A model generated the notes under the pieces. That model saw nothing but the letters and a program-made list of their open reading frames with translations, had not been told where the DNA came from and did no database searches. Positions 397 to 34,592 of a stretch of 64,000 bases of DNA are shown here, in pieces; position 1 is the first letter of the stretch; every line of letters starts with the position of its first letter. The position numbers and the translations under genes are program-made. Source of the DNA: Candidatus Woesearchaeota archaeon (GTDB taxonomy: Archaea; Nanobdellota; Nanobdellia; SCGC-AAA011-G17; JACPIM01); NCBI GenBank assembly GCA_043817645.1, contig JBDRGP010000024.1, positions 412 to 64,411 of the forward strand, in the 5' to 3' direction.

Positions 397-1011
397 GTGG
401 GTGTTTTGAGTTTTTTTGGAAAAAAAGGAATTAGTCCTCTAATTGGAGTTGTTTTACTTATTGGATTTACAGTTGCTTTAGCTGCCATGATTATTACTTG
501 GGGTGGAGGATTCTTAAGAGGGACGCAAGAGAATGTTGGAAAGCAGGTTGATGTTGGATTGGAGTGTGCGAGGATTGATTTTAAGGTTCTTGGTGTTGGT
601 TGTGGGGATGATATTTCTGAATATTCCTGTATAGATTCTCAATGTTCTGGCGGTCCGTTTGATGGTACGGGGTGTACTGCTAATGATGAATGTTCTGGTC
701 ATGATTTAACGAGGGTGAGAGTCCTTAGCAATACTGGTGTAGAGATTAAAGGTTTTGTGATCAGGGCCACAGATTATCTTGGTCAAGTGATTGTTAGTGA
801 TGATATTGATGATGTTCTTGTTCCGTTTGGTTCAGTCAATGCTGTTTTTGATGAAGTTGATGGTCTATTAAGGGCTGAGAACCCTACAAAAGTTGAAATG
901 TTTGCTAAGGTTCAAGTTGGAAACCATCCAATAGAGGTATGCGAAGTGGGAAGTGAGAAATTTAATGTGCCAAGTAGCCATGATTGTAGAACCCAAACCC
1001 CGCCACCTTAA
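397..1011 (+). CDS. secreted pilin-like protein with class III signal peptide and Cys-rich C-terminal module
   Basis: GTG start. N-terminus FFGKKG|ISPLIGVVLLIGFTVALAAMI has a short basic stretch followed by a hydrophobic helix typical of archaeal prepilin/archaellin-like signals. Middle part is Cys-rich (CGDDISEYSCIDSQCSGG..GTGCTANDECSG). Confidence 0.5.
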   Translation: MGVLSFFGKKGISPLIGVVLLIGFTVALAAMIITWGGGFLRGTQENVGKQVDVGLECARIDFKVLGVGCGDDISEYSCIDSQCSGGPFDGTGCTANDECSGHDLTRVRVLSNTGVEIKGFVIRATDYLGQVIVSDDIDDVLVPFGSVNAVFDEVDGLLRAENPTKVEMFAKVQVGNHPIEVCEVGSEKFNVPSSHDCRTQTPPP

Positions 1012-1035
1012 TAGTTTATCAAAGGATTTGATAAA

Positions 1036-1092
1036 ATGACACTAATAATAGCTCTTGGTGGAAATGCGGGTTTAAGAGATCATTCTGAATAG
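1036..1092 (+). pseudogene. duplicated 5' fragment of the carbamate kinase gene (encodes MTLIIALGGNAGLRDHSE*)
   Basis: atgacactaataatagctcttggtggaaatgc matches arcC start at 2222 (atgacaataataatagctttgggtggcaacg) at about 27/31 nt. Confidence 0.6.
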
Positions 1093-1105
1093 CAAGGTTT
1101 ATATA
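1093..1105 (+). promoter_or_regulatory. archaeal BRE/TATA promoter (caaggTTTATATA) for the MNT-HEPN operon
   Basis: aaggtttatatact matches the consensus that recurs upstream of many genes in this window. It lies ~37 nt upstream of the ATG at 1142. Confidence 0.5.
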
Positions 1106-1114
1106 CTAAAAAAG

Positions 1115-1144
1115 GGATAATATTATCCTGAAAAAAGGATAATG
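1115..1144 (+). promoter_or_regulatory. putative operator: perfect 14-bp palindrome GGATAATATTATCC plus an extra half-site GGATAAT overlapping the start codon
   Basis: Seen directly between the TATA box and the ATG of the nucleotidyltransferase gene. A position like this is typical of TA autoregulation sites. Confidence 0.4.
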
Positions 1145-1756
1145 TTAACTGCTAAAGAATTAAGAATTGTGGATTTATTTCGAAAGGATCCTTTTGTGAA
1201 TTTTACTATTAGGAAATTGATGAGCCATATTGATACTAGGTCGTATAGTTGGACTTATCAGGCTATAAAAAAGCTACAAAAAGAAAAAATTGTGTTGCTT
1301 ACAAAAAAAGGGCAAGGTCAGTTGTGTAGCATTAATTTAGATGAGCCGAGAAGTATTGTCTATCTTTCATTATTAGAAGAACTTAATGCCTTAGGCAAGA
1401 AAATACCGAACTTGGGTAAATTGATTGGAATAATGCCTGCGGATTTCCATATCTTGATTATAGGAGGGAGTTATGCTGATAACACTTTTACTAAAAAATC
1501 GGATATGGATGTAGTTGTTATAATTGATAAAAAAGAAGAAAAAAAGTGGTTATTGAATAAATTATCGAGTGAGGGGGATTTGATGATACCTCATTTGCAT
1601 GCTTATGTTTTTACTAAGGATGAATTTTTAGAAATGTTGATAAATAAAGAGGCTAATTATGGCAAGGAAATAGAAAGAAAACATTTAATAATTTCAGGAG
1701 CTGAGCTTTATTTTAAGATTTTAAAAGAGGCAATGGAAAGTGGATATAAGCGTTAA
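1142..1756 (+). CDS. minimal nucleotidyltransferase (MNT-type; candidate antitoxin or AMPylating partner of HEPN)
   Basis: Pol-beta-like NTase motif IIGGSYADNTF..KSDMDVVVI (GS..x..D.D). Overlaps the downstream HEPN gene by 17 nt. Confidence 0.7.
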   Translation: MLTAKELRIVDLFRKDPFVNFTIRKLMSHIDTRSYSWTYQAIKKLQKEKIVLLTKKGQGQLCSINLDEPRSIVYLSLLEELNALGKKIPNLGKLIGIMPADFHILIIGGSYADNTFTKKSDMDVVVIIDKKEEKKWLLNKLSSEGDLMIPHLHAYVFTKDEFLEMLINKEANYGKEIERKHLIISGAELYFKILKEAMESGYKR

Positions 1757-2225
1757 GCAATATTTAGAAAGAGCTGAAAATGAGTTAAGAGTTTCAACTA
1801 TCCTTAAAAACCTGTCTGAGTCTAATTCGGAGGAAAAAGCAAATCTGGGCGGGAGAAAGGAAGATACTTTTTACAGCTCGGTTATCTCTCATGCTTATTA
1901 TGCTATATTTTATTCTGCTAAGGCGATACTTTTGAGTAAGAATATTGAAACGGATGCTCCAGAAGTGCACAAAAAGACTTTGGAGGAGTTTAAGAAACAT
2001 TTTGTGGATTCTGGCATTTTGGATTTGGAATTATTAAAGATATATAATGAGATGATTGTGAGAGCAGATGAGCTTCTTGGACTTTATCAGATTGAGAAAA
2101 GTAAAAGAGGGCGATTTGTCTATAAGACTATTCCTCAGGCAAATGTTGAGCCGGCTGAGGAGTCTATTGCTCATGCTAAAAAGTTTGTTAGCCATATTAA
2201 ACAGATTATCGAGGGAGAGGTATGA
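1740..2225 (+). CDS. HEPN domain protein (candidate toxin of the MNT-HEPN pair)
   Basis: HEPN-like helical protein with HAYYAIFYSAKAILL and a conserved R/H region. Its stop overlaps the arcC start (ATGA). Confidence 0.65.
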   Translation: MDISVKQYLERAENELRVSTILKNLSESNSEEKANLGGRKEDTFYSSVISHAYYAIFYSAKAILLSKNIETDAPEVHKKTLEEFKKHFVDSGILDLELLKIYNEMIVRADELLGLYQIEKSKRGRFVYKTIPQANVEPAEESIAHAKKFVSHIKQIIEGEV

Positions 2226-3145
2226 CAATAATAATAGCTTTGGGTGGCAACGTTTTAACTCCAAATGGAAAAAATACCTATAAGGAGTTGCTTTGGAATA
2301 TTAAAAAAGTATCCAAGGTATTGGCGAAATTAGTTAAGAATAACAAATTAGTTATTGTTACTGGTTCTGGACCACAAATAGGCGCATTAATACTACAAAA
2401 TGAGCTGGCAAAAAATAGGGTGCCTCCTATGCCTTTAGATGTTCTTGATGCTGAATTGGAAGGGGAGCTAGGCTATTTATTAGAAGAGCAGTTGAGTAAT
2501 CAATTGAGAGAGAATAAAATTAAGAGACCTATTGCGACTTTAGTTACACAAGTTTTAGTGAATAAAAAAGATAAGGCTTTTAGAAATCCTACAAAACCTA
2601 TAGGTCCTTTTTATACAAAAAAAGAGGCTGAGAAATTAAGAAAAAAAGGATATAAAATCATTAATGATGCTGGAAGAGGTTTTAGAAGAGTAGTTGCATC
2701 ACCTAAACCTGTTAAAGTTATTGAAGCTGAGACTGTTAAGAAATTAGTTAGTATTGGGACTGTTGTTATTACTTGCGGTGGTGGCGGGATTCCTGTTGTT
2801 ACTTCCAGAGGTAAATTGAAAGGTGTTGAGGGTGTTATTGATAAGGATAGAGCTTCTGCTTGTTTAGGTAAGAGTGTTAAGGCATCTACTTTGCTTGTTT
2901 TGACTGGTGTTGATTTTGTTTATTTGAATTATGGCAAGAAGAATCAGAAAAAAATCAAAAAGATGAGTGTGAAAGAGGCTAAGGGATATTTAGAAGAAGG
3001 GCAGTTTGGTGTTGGGAGTATGAAGCCTAAGATTGAGGCTGCGGTTGATTTTTTATTGAGTGGGGGTAAGAGAGTGGTTATTACTAGACCTAGATATGCT
3101 GTGAAGGCTTTGGACGGAAAGTATGGGACTTTGATTGTTAAGTAA
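2222..3145 (+). CDS. arcC: carbamate kinase
   Basis: IIALGGN, TGSGPQIG, PLDVLDAE, NPTKPIGPFY, GRGFRRVVASPKP and ITCGGGGIPVV are all hallmark carbamate kinase (amino-acid kinase family) motifs. Confidence 0.8.
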   Translation: MTIIIALGGNVLTPNGKNTYKELLWNIKKVSKVLAKLVKNNKLVIVTGSGPQIGALILQNELAKNRVPPMPLDVLDAELEGELGYLLEEQLSNQLRENKIKRPIATLVTQVLVNKKDKAFRNPTKPIGPFYTKKEAEKLRKKGYKIINDAGRGFRRVVASPKPVKVIEAETVKKLVSIGTVVITCGGGGIPVVTSRGKLKGVEGVIDKDRASACLGKSVKASTLLVLTGVDFVYLNYGKKNQKKIKKMSVKEAKGYLEEGQFGVGSMKPKIEAAVDFLLSGGKRVVITRPRYAVKALDGKYGTLIVK

Positions 3146-3487
3146 TCAGGGTTTGGATTCTATGATTAATTTATGGTCTTCTGGGTGGATATGCGCTTCC
3201 TCTCCGTCTTTTAGGTTTAGATAATCTGCTATTTTTTTGGGTATTCTTACTGCTAGCGAATTCCCTGTTTTTGTGATTTTAGTTGTTGCGCTCAGTCCCC
3301 ATAACCCTTTTTTTTTGGCTATTTCTTCTATTTTTTTGGTGGTATCGGAGTCAGTAAAGGTCTCCTTACATTTAGTACAGATTTCTGCTGGAAATTCACC
3401 TAGGTATACCCCAAACATATACTCTTTTACTTTCCCCTTTTTTAGGGTACCATTTTCACATATTGGACATCTTGTCATTTTTACCAC
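3146..3487 (-). CDS. Zn-ribbon (CPxC…CxxC) + SpoVT/AbrB-like DNA-binding protein, candidate antitoxin
   Basis: N-terminal CPICENG…CTKC zinc ribbon (YgiT/MqsA-like). C-terminal GNSLAVRIPKKIADYLNLK swapped-hairpin AbrB/MazE-like motif. Paralogs lie at 25518 and 34013. Its start overlaps the stop of an upstream DUF4258-like frame. Confidence 0.6.
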   Translation of the reverse strand: MVKMTRCPICENGTLKKGKVKEYMFGVYLGEFPAEICTKCKETFTDSDTTKKIEEIAKKKGLWGLSATTKITKTGNSLAVRIPKKIADYLNLKDGEEAHIHPEDHKLIIESKP

Positions 3488-3681
3488 TTTGGTTTTACAG
3501 TGATTATAAAATATTCATTATTTATCTTTTTGGTTACTACAGTGAAATAACTATAATGATGTAGTATTTTATTAGGTTTCTGTAATTCCTTTGCTCCTTT
3601 CTTGATTGCTTCCTCAACTTCGTTTACTGATATTCCTCTTTCGATCATTTGCGCTCTAGCCTGTTTGCTGTATTTTGGCAG
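3481..3681 (-). pseudogene. DUF4258-family toxin-like gene lacking a canonical start codon (CTG where the paralog has GTG)
   Basis: Frame encodes LPKYSKQARAQMIERGISVNEVEEAIKKGAKELQKPNKILHHYSYFTVVTKKINNEYFIITVKPKW*, homologous to the 34338..34541 product. The upstream TATA and AGGTGA-6nt spacing are conserved, but the aligned initiator is CTG. An in-frame ATG is only present at 3648. Confidence 0.45.
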
Positions 3682-3710
3682 ATGTAATCACCTGTAATTA
3701 CAGTACTTAC

Positions 3711-3725
3711 TTTAGTATATAAATG
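3711..3725 (-). promoter_or_regulatory. BRE/TATA promoter (minus strand) of the DUF4258/ZnR-AbrB module, followed by an AGGTGA ribosome-binding site at ~3691-3696
   Basis: catttatatactaaa on the minus strand. The architecture is homologous to 34573..34592. Confidence 0.4.
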
Positions 3726-3750
3726 TTTTGTTTTGAGTTACAGTAAGTTT

Positions 3751-3795
3751 ATGTAGGCTTTGGATGGGAAGTATGGAAGTTTGATTGTTAGGTAG
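3751..3795 (+). pseudogene. duplicated 3' fragment of the carbamate kinase gene
   Basis: atgtaggctttggatgggaagtatggaagtttgattgttaggtag matches arcC 3' end 3101..3145 (gtgaaggctttggacggaaagtatgggactttgattgttaagtaa) at about 37/45 nt. Confidence 0.6.
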
Positions 3796-3855
3796 TTTTT
3801 ACTCTTTTGAACGACAAACGAAAGATTTATATGTATGTATATGTATACGTAAATA

Positions 3856-4083
3856 ATGGTAAAATTAGTTTCTTTGTCAAATGATGTGTATGACCTATTG
3901 AAAAGTATGAAAAAAGAAAATGAATCTTTTTCACAGTTACTTAGGAGAAGAATTACTCTGAGAAAGAAAGTGAGCTTACTGGATTTGGCAGGTTCTATTA
4001 AGGATGGTAGTTTTGATAAGGCGATGGTGGCGGTTCTCTCTAAAAGAAATGTGAGATCAAAAGAGATATTGAGGTTTGATTAA
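3856..4083 (+). CDS. vapB: VapB-like antitoxin (small DNA-binding protein upstream of PIN gene)
   Basis: 75-aa basic protein. Overlaps the PIN-domain gene by 8 nt in typical TA arrangement. Confidence 0.5.
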   Translation: MVKLVSLSNDVYDLLKSMKKENESFSQLLRRRITLRKKVSLLDLAGSIKDGSFDKAMVAVLSKRNVRSKEILRFD

Positions 4084-4480
4084 ATTGTATCTATTAGATT
4101 CTGATGTTATTGTTGGTTTCTTGAGGGGTAATACTGGAGCGGTAGAAAAAATAAAGAATTTAGAGGAAAAAAATGCTTCTTTGTGTATCTCTTCAATATC
4201 GATTCATGAATTATTAGAAGGGGCTTATTTATCTTTAAAACCTAAAGAGAATTTGGAAGCGATTAGGGATTTTGTTAATAGGGTGGTTGTTTTGGATTTT
4301 ACTTTTGACTGTGCTAAGATCTCTGGTAAGATATCAGCAGATTTAACTAGGAAGGGTGAAAAGATTGGAGATATTGATGTCTTGTTGTCTTCTATTGCTA
4401 TATGTAATGGTCTTATTTTAGTTACTAGGAATACGAGGCATTTTAGTAAGATTAATATATTAAAATTGCTAGCTTGGTAA
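4076..4480 (+). CDS. vapC: PIN-domain ribonuclease toxin VapC
   Basis: N-terminal LYLLDSDVIVGFL (first PIN Asp) with conserved acidic residues further on (…ILVTRNTRHF). 134 aa. Confidence 0.7.
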   Translation: MIKLYLLDSDVIVGFLRGNTGAVEKIKNLEEKNASLCISSISIHELLEGAYLSLKPKENLEAIRDFVNRVVVLDFTFDCAKISGKISADLTRKGEKIGDIDVLLSSIAICNGLILVTRNTRHFSKINILKLLAW

Positions 4481-4483
4481 TAG

Positions 4484-5870
4484 GTACGTGTTTTGCTAAC
4501 CGAAAATAGAATATACTAGTTATAATTATTAATTTCATGGGGGGAGGAGGAAAGAGGTGCAGATACCCCAAGAATTAAAGGAACTCAGTAAAAGAGACTT
4601 GATAAGGATAATTCTTGATTTGCAGAAGAGGCTTGCAATATATGAGAATGCACATATTCCTTCTTCCAAGAAGAGATTTCCTGAGAGAAAGAAACCATCC
4701 AACAGCAAGATAGGTGCTCCAAAAGGACATCCGGGTACGACAAGAGAAAGGAAAGAGCCAACGGAGAGGATAGATGTAGAAGCAGTTCAGTGTAAGCATT
4801 GCCGTGATTTGCTGGATAAGCCATTTAAGCAAGAGAAGAAGGTAATAGAAGAGATACCAGACCCCCAACCAGTGAGAGTTATTGAATTTCTAATCGATCA
4901 CTATAAATGTCCTTCATGTAATGAAATAACAGTAGCTTCTCACCCAAGCTTACCTAAGGAAGGCACTTTAGGTAATAACTTACAGGCACAAATAGCTTTG
5001 ATGAAATACGAAGATAGACTGCCTCACAGAAAGATAGTACAAACACTAAACAGACAACATGATTTGGATTTAGCACCCAGTACAATACTAGAGGTGACAA
5101 ATAGGGTTGCCAAAAGAGTTGAACCTGAATACAATAAGATAAAACAAACAATAAGAAAGTCTCCTAATGTTTACTCAGATGAAACAGGACACAAAGTACA
5201 AGGGAAGAACTTTTGGTTATGGGGGATTGCAATTAAGATAGCAGTATTATTTGCTATAAGGAAGAAAAGAAGCAAAGAGGTTTTAGAGGAATTGCTTGGA
5301 GATAATTATAAGGGAATAATCTCATGTGATGGTTGGACTACATATTCCAAGTATTCGGATAACATTCAGAGATGTTGGGCGCATATACTGAGAGAAGCAG
5401 AATATTTAGCAGAACAACATGAATCTGCCAAGTTATTTTATCAGGAACTTAGAGAATTATATAACCTGGTAGACAGGGTTACAGAGCAAGATTCTCTAGA
5501 AGCAAGAAAGAGATTATACTTAAAGTGCATTGCTCAAATGGATAGATTAGTTGGAAGGATGGAAGCATATAAGGAATTACGTAAATTTGCAGTGAAGCTG
5601 GAGAATGGCAAGGTACATTTCTTTACTAGGGTTTTGTATCCTTTTGTAGAGGCTACTAATAACATTGCTGAGAGATCATTGAGGGAACCAATTGTACAGA
5701 GAAAGATTATCGGAACCCTAAGGAACGAGAAAGGTATCAGAATAACAGAAGTATTGCTTAGTGTGCTAATGACGTGGAGGATGCGAGGATTAAATACTTA
5801 TGGAGGATGCGAGGATTAAATACTTATGATGAGCTTAGAAGAGCCTTAAGCTCCTAAGCAAAACACGTAC
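4484..5870. mobile_element. IS66-family (ISBst12-like, single-ORF) insertion sequence with 14-bp perfect terminal inverted repeats and 8-bp target-site duplication GGTAATAG
   Basis: Left IR GTACGTGTTTTGCT (4484-4497). Right IR AGCAAAACACGTAC (5857-5870). Flanking direct repeats ggtaatag at 4476-4483 and 5871-5878. An 8-bp TSD is characteristic of IS66. Confidence 0.75.
4557..5819 (+). CDS. IS66-family transposase (TnpC-like)
   Basis: N-terminal leucine zipper. CxxC…CxxC zinc finger (CKHCRD…CPSCN). DDE region SDETGHKV, CDGWTTY, CWAHILRE and TNNIAERSLRE are IS66 signature motifs. Confidence 0.8.
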   Translation: MQIPQELKELSKRDLIRIILDLQKRLAIYENAHIPSSKKRFPERKKPSNSKIGAPKGHPGTTRERKEPTERIDVEAVQCKHCRDLLDKPFKQEKKVIEEIPDPQPVRVIEFLIDHYKCPSCNEITVASHPSLPKEGTLGNNLQAQIALMKYEDRLPHRKIVQTLNRQHDLDLAPSTILEVTNRVAKRVEPEYNKIKQTIRKSPNVYSDETGHKVQGKNFWLWGIAIKIAVLFAIRKKRSKEVLEELLGDNYKGIISCDGWTTYSKYSDNIQRCWAHILREAEYLAEQHESAKLFYQELRELYNLVDRVTEQDSLEARKRLYLKCIAQMDRLVGRMEAYKELRKFAVKLENGKVHFFTRVLYPFVEATNNIAERSLREPIVQRKIIGTLRNEKGIRITEVLLSVLMTWRMRGLNTYGGCED

Positions 5871-5919
5871 GGTAATAGTAAATATTTTTAAAGGTAGAAT
5901 TAACTAATTCTGTATATAC

Positions 5920-6036
5920 GGGAACGTAGTTTAACCCGGCTAGAATGAGTGGCTCCAGATATAAGGGTAAACCCTTATCAACCCAAGATAATCCAGGAGA
6001 GACCACTAGATCCAGGTTCAAATCCTGGCGTTCCCA
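5920..6036 (+). tRNA. tRNA-Trp (anticodon CCA) with a ~43-nt intron at the canonical 37/38 position
   Basis: 7-bp acceptor stem GGGAACG/CGTTCCC. T-arm CCAGG-TTCAAAT-CCTGG. Discriminator A followed by TTTT. Anticodon stem AGTGG/CCACT with loop CTCCAG[intron]A. Hand-folded. Confidence 0.6.
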
Positions 6037-34012: not shown

Positions 34013-34336
34013 TTAAACTTCAATTAGGATTTCTTTGTTGCTTTTTGGGATTAATTTAACTATCTCTTCTTTTTTTAAATCTACGAACTTTGCTATCTCT
34101 TTTGGTATTCTAATTGCCAAGCTATTTCCAACCATTGCTACTTTTGTTTTTTTAGCCATCCCAAATAAACCTAACTCTTTAGATTTTTTTTGAATTCTTT
34201 CTGCAGAAATTTCGTCATAAAAAACTTCATTACATTTGGTACACACTAAAGCAGGAAATTTGCCTAAAGAGACCCCTAATTCTTTATGTTCAACTTCCTT
34301 TTTTTTCAATTCTCCATTACATGTGATACATTTCAT
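34013..34336 (-). CDS. Zn-ribbon + SpoVT/AbrB-like antitoxin-like protein
   Basis: CITCNG…CTKCNE zinc ribbon with a C-terminal GNSLAIRIPKEIAKFVDLK AbrB motif. ATG at 34336 lies 1 nt after the toxin stop (TAAAATG). The ORF track extends it to 34372. Confidence 0.6.
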   Translation of the reverse strand: MKCITCNGELKKKEVEHKELGVSLGKFPALVCTKCNEVFYDEISAERIQKKSKELGLFGMAKKTKVAMVGNSLAIRIPKEIAKFVDLKKEEIVKLIPKSNKEILIEV

Positions 34337-34337
34337 T

Positions 34338-34541
34338 TTAATCCTCCAGATAAACTGTGATGATAAATACACTTGAATCTTTTTTCGAAAATACTACTTC
34401 TATGCCAAAAGCTCTTGCGTGCCATTTTTCTGTATTTTTTTCTTTCCATTTCATACCCTTTGTGATAACGGATTTTACTTCGTCTTTTTCTATCCCTAGT
34501 CCATCCATCTTTTCCAGGGCATGTTTTTTAAATATAAACAC
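34338..34541 (-). CDS. DUF4258-family toxin-like protein
   Basis: GTG start 6 nt after AGGTGA. FKKHALEKMDGLGIEKDEVKSVITKG…VFIITVYLED matches DUF4258 (…KHA.ERM.ERGIS..EV…vITVY). Confidence 0.55.
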   Translation of the reverse strand: MFIFKKHALEKMDGLGIEKDEVKSVITKGMKWKEKNTEKWHARAFGIEVVFSKKDSSVFIITVYLED

Positions 34542-34572
34542 TAGTATTCACCTGTAATTATTGGTATATCTA

Positions 34573-34592
34573 ATGATATATAAAGTTTTCGG
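34573..34592 (-). promoter_or_regulatory. BRE/TATA promoter (minus strand ccgaAAACTTTATATAtcat) of the DUF4258/ZnR-AbrB operon
   Basis: Homologous to the 3711..3725 element. Followed by an AGGTGA ribosome-binding site. Confidence 0.45.

Follow-up and report, generated by a model that had tools for sequence, protein, structure and literature searches.

A DUF4258 toxin-antitoxin cassette of a Woesearchaeote with CTG at the toxin start position and substitutions in the predicted active site

Results

The cassette and its leader

This study concerned a small toxin-antitoxin (TA) cassette, here called module A, in a 64,000-nt stretch of DNA (the window) from a Candidatus Woesearchaeota archaeon (assembly GCA_043817645.1, contig JBDRGP010000024.1, positions 412 to 64,411). 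The cassette is chromosomal, occupies positions 3146-3723 of the minus strand, and is of the toxin-first type, with a TATA box, octamers, an AGGTGA motif, the toxin gene and the antitoxin gene following one another in that order (Table 1). Its two small genes, 2 nt apart behind one TATA/Shine-Dalgarno leader, and the PF04014 domain of its antitoxin identify it as a type II TA module, and the pairing of toxin and antitoxin was kept in 107 of 126 loci of the family. Toxin A carries CTG where a start codon is expected and glutamine where nearly all of its relatives have histidine, and both features bear on whether it is still made and still active.

The toxin A reading frame of 66 codons is intact and collinear with its orthologs, and shows none of the disruption expected of a pseudogene; it ends with TAA (3483-3481). 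A TGA inside the AGGTGA motif (3690-3688) shares this frame, so that no start is possible further upstream, as a first, sequence-only reading of the window had noted. The first canonical start in the frame is ATG 3648, which has no Shine-Dalgarno-like sequence before it. The sequence-only reading also had the antitoxin start overlapping the toxin stop, but the GTG at 3487 in that region is merely the first start in the open antitoxin frame; the start conserved in the family is the ATG at 3478-3476, 2 nt past the toxin stop and preceded by a weak Shine-Dalgarno-like site. Translation of the antitoxin may be coupled to that of the toxin, in which case complete silencing of the toxin would be costly.

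Either TTTATATA or TTTAAATA was found at an equal distance from the start codon in the aligned orthologous loci. Between the TATA box of module A and its AGGTGA lie 22 nt that contain GTAAGTAC-T-GTAATTAC, and in 106 unique upstream regions octamers of the form GT[AG][ACT][TG]TAC were concentrated near -29/-28, -20/-19 and -10 relative to the start codon. The octamer trio is a likely operator of the AbrB-type antitoxin. By the spacing of TATA box and ATG in first-in-operon genes of the window, transcription is predicted to start near A3693, and the leader would then be some 12 nt long, with AGGUGA at its 5' end.

This arrangement is unusual for the window. Its first-in-operon genes (for example 6205, 21362, 35172, 39146 and 42401) lack a Shine-Dalgarno site, carry the TATA box 18-22 nt ahead of the ATG, and look leaderless, while genes internal to operons have GGAGGT or GAGGT at -5 to -10 (such as 17477, 49958 and 54351); gene 22948 carries GGAGGTGA. 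In the TA modules a TATA box is followed by a short leader with a Shine-Dalgarno site in it. When genes of the form GGTGA-N6-CTG were sought across the window, toxin A alone fitted, a result that is silent on genome-wide use of CTG.

Table 1. Positions of the features of modules A and B and of the module A neighbourhood
Feature	Position	Strand	Basis
Archaeal TATA box TTTATATA, module A	3716..3723	-	read from sequence; putative function
Octamer trio, 9-10 nt spacing, candidate operator for AbrB-type antitoxin	3684..3710	-	predicted
Octamer GTAAGTAC	3710-3703	-	
Octamer GTAATTAC, perfect palindrome	3701-3694	-	
Octamer GTGATTAC, overlapping the AGGTGA ribosome-binding site	3691-3684	-	
AGGTGA, Shine-Dalgarno-like	3688..3693	-	same spacing kept across family
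TTACAT, 6-nt spacer	3682..3687	-	read from sequence
CTG at toxin A start-codon position	3679..3681	-	read from sequence; family alignment
Toxin A, DUF4258 / BECR-fold, 66 codons plus stop, LPKYSKQARAQMIERGISVNEVEEAIKKGAKELQKPNKILHHYSYFTVVTKKINNEYFIITVKPKW	3481..3681	-	Pfam, homologs, AF2 model, Foldseek
Codon 7, CAG (Gln); His in 106/107 unique homologs	3661..3663	-	
Internal ATG (Met12), gene-caller start giving a 55-aa product	3646..3648	-	open reading frame list, public gene calls
Codon 65, AAG (Lys); Arg in 105/107 unique homologs	3487..3489	-	
Antitoxin A, 110 aa, N-terminal YgiT-type (MqsA-like) zinc ribbon and C-terminal AbrB/MazE/SpoVT	3146..3478	-	PF04014, TIGR03831
Module B promoter and leader	34548..34584	-	TATA box, degenerate octamers, AGGTGA
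TATA box TTTATATA, module B	34577..34584	-	
Degenerate octamers, module B	34544..34570	-	
AGGTGA, then 6-nt spacer, module B	34548..34553	-	
Toxin B GTG start codon	34539..34541	-	
Toxin B, DUF4258, 67 aa, GTG start, subfamily other than that of A	34338..34541	-	Pfam, alignment
Antitoxin B, 107 aa, YgiT zinc ribbon and AbrB/MazE	34013..34336	-	PF04014, TIGR03831
Direct-repeat copy 1, true 3' end of carbamate-kinase-like gene 2222-3145	3102..3144	+	alignment
Direct-repeat copy 2, displaced duplicate of the same 3' end	3752..3794	+	86% identical to copy 1
Nucleotidyltransferase/HEPN pairs	1142-2225		precomputed Pfam matches
VapB/VapC	3856-4480		precomputed Pfam matches
IS66-family transposase	4557-5819		precomputed Pfam matches
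tRNA gene with intron	5920-6036		Rfam; missed by ARAGORN

Module B as a distant paralog

A second cassette of the same layout, module B, lies some way along the window, and the sequence-only reading had taken modules A and B for copies of one duplicated unit, using the GTG start of toxin B as the reference for toxin A. The leaders bear out part of this. The TATA box, AGGTGA and 6-nt spacing are common to both modules, the exact 13-mer TAATTACAGGTGA occurs in the window at these two sites only, and CTG in module A does stand where module B has GTG. The antitoxins are also related (44% identity, E=8e-31). The toxins, however, show no significant pairwise similarity (BLASTP E=0.65), module B was not recovered by tblastn with toxin A as the query, and the DNA alignment of A with B is strong only in the leader and in parts of the antitoxin. 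A recent duplication was rejected on these grounds. By alignment, module B is a distant paralog and the wrong reference for the former start codon of toxin A. An operator role for the octamers would explain why the leader is conserved between modules whose toxins have diverged.

Toxin B retains 16 of the 16 residues that are invariant in its own subfamily, His7 included, and so is intact. A protein identical to it is present in NCBI as a DUF4258 domain-containing protein of a Woesearchaeota metagenome-assembled genome (MAG). The ATG of antitoxin B (34336-34334) follows 1 nt past the toxin B stop.

Toxin fold and antitoxin domains

Homology of the CTG-extended frame to DUF4258 proteins, as the sequence-only reading had proposed, was upheld: against PF14076 (gathering threshold 25 bits) toxin A scored 31.2 bits and toxin B 30.8 bits. 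For toxin A the profile match covers the CTG-initiated protein from residue 4 onward, and the 55-aa form scored 23.3 bits, under the cutoff. Toxin A is 77-83% identical to its full-length homologs. An AlphaFold2 (AF2) model built with 44 sequences had a predicted local distance difference test (pLDDT) score of 83.6 and consisted of helices at residues 6-15 and 19-28 followed by strands at 30-35, 38-43, 46-53 and 56-64, which is the order pre-alpha, alpha, beta1-4 of the BECR fold. When this model was compared with PDB structures using Foldseek, the top 30 matches were nearly all RelE, YoeB, YafQ and ParE proteins, with one CdiA-CT; the query TM-scores (TMq) were 0.6-0.7 and the probabilities 0.9-1.0, with weak E-values (0.06-0.6) for what is a very small protein.

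DUF4258 has been grouped within the RelE/ParE superfamily (PMC11980606) and later to the colicin-like/Ntox49 branch of the BECR RNases (bioRxiv 10.64898/2026.08.28.747851). Colicin-like BECR toxins have a pre-alpha helix in addition to alpha-beta1-4, this helix and beta4 together make up the active site, and a conserved histidine is usual, in DUF4258 as well, on the pre-alpha helix facing beta4 (bioRxiv 10.64898/2026.08.28.747851). By the order of secondary structure in the AF2 model, the pre-alpha helix has position 7 at its start, and position 65 comes just after beta4. By analogy with these toxins, His7 of the family is the predicted catalytic histidine.

Antitoxin A scored 29.7 bits against PF04014 (cutoff 24.7), and antitoxin B was also above that cutoff. 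The YgiT zinc ribbon model TIGR03831 (cutoff 20.2) matched both, with 25.9 bits for A and 21.4 for B, while scores for full-length MqsA (TIGR03830) were 15.2 and 17.6 bits, far from the cutoff of 61.8. As the helix-turn-helix (HTH) of MqsA is replaced by an AbrB/MazE domain, these antitoxins are not members of the MqsA family.

Start codons across the family

A protein search recovered 83 relatives of toxin A with 60-84% identity, and scans of metagenome and genome contigs gave 128 loci. Loci from genome assemblies were labelled mostly as Woesearchaeota, Nanoarchaeota or, in automated MAG records, 'uncultured Methanosarcinales'. The codon aligned to the CTG of toxin A was placed at each locus by tblastn, without reliance on gene calls. 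In 111 unique Woesearchaeota genes this codon was TTG (77), ATG (14), GTG (13) or CTG (7), and never anything else. About 70% of the family toxins thus start with TTG, and the family antitoxins start with ATG. The 111 toxin frames were all 65-69 aa long, and none contained a frameshift or premature stop.

The nearest relatives of toxin A (L001, L004 and L081) carry TTG, so the CTG of the window copy is a single T-to-C transition away, and on this comparison the ancestral start codon is TTG, not the GTG that module B would suggest. The other CTG loci keep His7 and Arg65, and all conserved residues. CTG loci were scattered in a neighbour-joining tree, with TTG loci as the nearest neighbours of each, which implies about five or more independent changes from TTG to CTG, given a 66-residue tree that is poorly resolved. 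An eighth CTG locus (L133) came to light later, when four database proteins with short calls were checked. Five of the CTG loci, the window copy included, have a TGA in frame three codons upstream, and in these five CTG is the sole possible start for the conserved N-terminus. A check of strains for GTG/CTG polymorphism at the window locus was uninformative, as the only other copy (L129) is 100% identical.

In a more distant subgroup, with the leader AGGTGTTACAT-TTG (for example L044-L128), the leader is 1 nt shorter, which places the GTG of AGGTG in the toxin frame three codons upstream of the TTG position. That the codon at the TTG position is limited to NTG in this subgroup argues that it is still the start there, the alternative being a near-leaderless start at the GTG. 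This weakens two of the CTG loci, L113 and L119, as CTG examples.

The codons between the start position and Met12 behave as coding sequence. In the N-terminal 11 codons the ratio of nonsynonymous to synonymous differences per site (pN/pS) was 0.03-0.09 for pairs of TTG loci and reached 0.09 for L024 against L043, which are CTG loci. Between another CTG pair, L113 and L119, 23% of synonymous sites differ and 3% of nonsynonymous sites. By these measures the segment is clearly coding and under purifying selection in the family. This bears on an explanation in which the real product of toxin A is the 55-aa protein from ATG 3648, truncated at its N-terminus, non-catalytic and perhaps still able to bind the antitoxin. 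That ATG is the first canonical start, Met12 is 95% conserved, and about 40 database homologs have been called at 54-57 aa. Of the four short calls that were checked, however, three have a TTG start and a full conserved N-terminus and were truncated by gene callers, and the absence of a Shine-Dalgarno-like site before ATG 3648, the selection on the N-terminal codons and the Pfam score of the short form all count against it; we regard this explanation as quite improbable. As three of the four checked were mis-called TTG starts, the many 55-aa database homologs were rejected as a sign of widespread start loss. As an observation on annotation, public gene callers often cut toxins of this family to 54-57 aa at Met12, with loss of the helix bearing the conserved histidine (P0025-P0083).

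Could CTG be a null allele? The sequence-only reading had offered silencing of the toxin by loss of its start codon, next to attenuation by weak CTG initiation. In the first case CTG would go unrecognised and no full-length toxin would be made, leaving an orphan antitoxin beside a toxin in early decay, in which changes in the active site follow as neutral events. It gains from reviews in which archaeal start codons comprise AUG, GUG and UUG only (PMC4705826), and from the failure of gene callers to call the extended frame. Yet with CTG as a null allele one would expect further nulls, such as TTA or TCG at the start position, or nonsense and frameshift mutations in the 198 nt, at least as often, and none was seen in 111 genes that include seven with CTG, or eight with L133, scattered over the tree and otherwise intact. 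Five independent hits, all at position 1 of TTG, have a neutral probability of about 0.004 (by our own arithmetic, over three transitions), and an A-T mutation bias would favour TTA over CTG as a product of TTG. The published baseline for prokaryotes is one UUG-to-CUG switch for 35 UUG-to-GUG switches (PMC5622118), and against this CTG, half as common as GTG in the toxin family, is unusually frequent. On this comparative evidence CTG very probably initiates in the toxin family, presumably weakly and below TTG, and is most likely a weak working start and not a null allele. The pattern thus fits the attenuation option and tells against silencing by start-codon loss.

Substitutions, selection and retention of the antitoxin

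Toxin A was aligned to 107 unique orthologs. Among the columns that are at least 85% conserved it deviates at only two, which are the polar positions with the highest conservation: His7 is replaced by Gln and Arg65 by Lys, each replacement being confined to the window toxin among 108 unique sequences. Less strictly conserved positions are also affected, with Ser at position 44 (Arg or Lys in 93% of sequences) and Pro at position 2 (Ile, Val or Leu in 96%). The histidine of the K-H-A motif in the N-terminal helix is present in toxin B and missing from toxin A, which by alignment is a DUF4258 member by descent without the conserved histidine.

An error of sequencing or assembly at the start codon or codon 7 would dispose of the case, and the genome is indeed a metagenome assembly. 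A second public assembly, whose naming scheme points to a different assembler, matches it at every one of 6,168 bases, CTG and CAG included, and at least four separate codons would all need to be wrong, so such an error is extremely unlikely.

In comparison with L001, toxin A had a pN/pS of 0.11 overall and 0.09 for codons 13-66. In the N-terminal 11 codons it had four nonsynonymous changes relative to L001, as against one in comparisons between TTG loci. The latter count favours the silencing explanation, and the unique losses of His7 and Arg65 would suit the relaxed constraint that it supposes. The low ratio for codons 13-66, the preservation of all conserved residues in the other CTG genes and the possible dependence of antitoxin translation on ribosomes translating the toxin oppose it, and silencing alone is accordingly held to be unlikely. 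The picture given by the alignments and the model is of a folded protein with a dismantled active site, and not of a decaying pseudogene. Generalised relaxed selection on toxin A was considered and is not claimed, as relative-rate tests were inconsistent.

Retention of the antitoxin, another element of the sequence-only reading, was borne out. The reading frame and the four cysteines of antitoxin A are intact, and it has three mild deviations at 57 conserved columns, all shared with other sequences.

A histidine-to-glutamine change is a classical inactivating change in RelE-family RNases, and a crystallised mutant form of this kind, YafQ H87Q, was among the Foldseek matches of the toxin A model. 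This is relevant to the possibility that toxin A is fully active, with CTG merely lowering its dosage, Gln7 and Lys65 tolerated, and module A a normal TA system. Such activity would agree with the recurrence of CTG in otherwise intact family members, with the intact toxin and antitoxin frames and low overall pN/pS, and with the wide variation of active sites among subfamilies of the RelE superfamily. It sits poorly with substitutions that are each unique among 108 sequences at the most conserved polar positions, with a histidine that is invariant even in the distant subfamily of toxin B, and with the usual effect of losing it. We hold a fully active toxin to be less probable still than silencing.

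Discussion

Module A is a type II TA cassette of a family widespread in Woesearchaeota, which would restrain its toxin-first operon by pairing a weak toxin start, mostly TTG, with ATG on the antitoxin. In the window copy TTG has changed to CTG, which would still initiate but probably more weakly than TTG, and the toxin lacks residues predicted to serve chemistry or RNA binding, with Gln in place of His7, Lys in place of Arg65 and Ser in place of the basic residue at position 44. A protein begun at CTG would be of full length and lack the predicted catalytic histidine, and one begun at ATG 3648 would have 55 aa and lack the whole pre-alpha helix. From either start little or no RNase activity would be expected, and we infer a loss of toxicity, with the antitoxin still working as antitoxin and repressor. 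To this combination, a weak but functional CTG, a disarmed toxin and a retained antitoxin, we give slightly better than even credence. Of the earlier interpretation, antitoxin retention and weak CTG initiation have therefore stood, silencing through start loss has not, and the loss of the predicted active-site residues had been missed. The retained antitoxin could repress its own promoter, or could protect against related incoming toxins; no relatives of the toxin family were found in IMG/VR, so that the protective role is without support here.

Several points weigh against this combination. CUG initiation in archaea is without experimental support in the literature, and the case made here is a comparative one; among published data, ribosome profiling of Haloferax comes nearest, with near-cognate initiation peaks (PMC7261190). 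Of the CTG loci, L113 and L119 have an in-frame GTG inside AGGTG that is a possible alternative start. DUF4258 proteins have no tested activity or mapped catalytic residues in the literature (Gerdes 2025), and the roles given to His7 and Arg65 are deduced from related folds. Relative-rate tests gave mixed results, p ranging between 0.008 and 1.0 according to the sister and outgroup used. Toxin A therefore shows no robust overall acceleration, and any relaxation would be recent or at few sites. The replacements by Gln and Lys are also conservative, so residual activity could persist.

A wider claim would be that CUG is a genuine, recurrent and selected start codon in Woesearchaeota (DPANN), and that a ladder of start codons, ATG > GTG > TTG > CTG, sets the dosage of the toxin against that of an antitoxin started by ATG. 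The window copy would then stand at the extreme end of the ladder, with a toxin that is catalytically disarmed as well. We hold this claim, both parts taken together, tentatively and at somewhat less than an even chance.

In its general plan the module would, by analogy, work like MqsRA and other RelE-type type II systems. As in MqsR-MqsA of E. coli, the gene for the toxin precedes that for the antitoxin, the fold of the toxin is RelE-like, and the antitoxin has an N-terminal YgiT-type zinc ribbon and would be expected to bind palindromes in its own promoter. It differs in having DUF4258 instead of MqsR as the toxin, a C-terminal AbrB/MazE domain (PF04014) where MqsA has the HTH, and an archaeal TATA promoter. 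With DUF4258 toxins it shares a hidden Markov model match above the cutoff, the order pre-alpha, alpha, beta1-4, an N-terminal x-H-A-x-x-x-M motif in the relatives and in module B, and a partner with an MqsA-type zinc ribbon, fusions of DUF4258 with MqsA having been reported. Here, however, the toxin precedes the antitoxin, whereas Gerdes lists DUF4258 as A/T, and the window copy has no conserved histidine. PADLOC defence-system models gave no matches.

A weak toxin start has a precedent in haloarchaea. In NgVapBC1 a weaker start codon of the toxin was shown by experiment to restrain toxicity, and codon changes released it (PMC13488343). As there, the toxin start of the present family is weaker than that of the antitoxin (TTG or CTG for the toxin, ATG for the antitoxin). 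NgVapBC1 differs in having a PIN toxin in place of a BECR toxin, the opposite gene order, and GTG as the weak codon, CTG not being covered.

Degenerate or orphan TA loci, with an inactivated toxin and a retained antitoxin, are common in bacterial chromosomes. Module A resembles them in that the active site of the toxin is lost while the antitoxin and promoter are intact, and differs in having no frameshift, stop or truncation, a fold that is kept, and a gene that for the most part still looks constrained. In itself the window copy would be an ordinary outcome, a disarmed toxin beside a retained antitoxin, and a useful natural active-site mutant. What is new is the family-level evidence for a CTG start in archaea, together with the strong bias to TTG; disarmed toxins were already commonplace. 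If the start-codon reading is true, the family offers a concrete case, and the first comparative one, for CUG initiation in archaea beyond AUG, GUG and UUG, with CTG recurring at a fixed position anchored by a Shine-Dalgarno-like site, and made stronger by the absence of other codons at the start position and of broken alleles. If true, a weak toxin start combined with an ATG on the antitoxin would also bear on how toxin-first operons keep the ratio of the two proteins safe. For annotation, the consequence is that public calls shorten many toxins of the family to 55 aa and remove the predicted catalytic helix.

Flanking repeats and genomic neighbourhood

A cassette of 606 bp containing module A sits exactly between 43-nt direct repeats, in which the stop codon of the carbamate-kinase-like gene, convergent to the cassette, is contained. 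Of 73 unique cassettes with both flanks available, 10 had upstream-versus-downstream flank alignments with a score of 18 or more, compared with 0.08% in mismatched-locus controls. Besides the window copy, flanking repeats were noted at L040/L041, L065, L005, L090, L010/L084, L017, L116, L064, L061 and L015/L016. Such repeats are specific to each locus and 18-74 nt long; several span the 3' end or stop of a host gene that is convergent, and at several loci they adjoin the antitoxin stop. This suggests insertion of the cassette with a long and variable target duplication. Conserved terminal motifs or inverted repeats were not evident at the cassette ends, and no flanking repeat was found around module B, where the score of 11.5 was at the null level.

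At L065 part of the 74-nt flank repeat is present a third time, in the stretch from the antitoxin to the downstream repeat, which hints at more than one insertion or excision at the same site. In a distant Woesearchaeote (L103, and L058 at 1452-2994) a cassette belonging to this family, its toxin showing 70% identity, is again convergent to a carbamate-kinase homolog (53% identity) and lies about 60 nt from its 3' end, with no detectable flanking duplication. Its position could reflect an ancient shared insertion or a preferred site. A supposed decayed duplicate of the arcC end in L103 was dropped, since the similarity seen by eye was below chance level.

Module A lies amid a cluster of mobile and defence-type genes (window 397-6036), with nucleotidyltransferase/HEPN pairs on one side and a VapB/VapC pair, an IS66-family transposase and an intron-bearing tRNA gene on the other.

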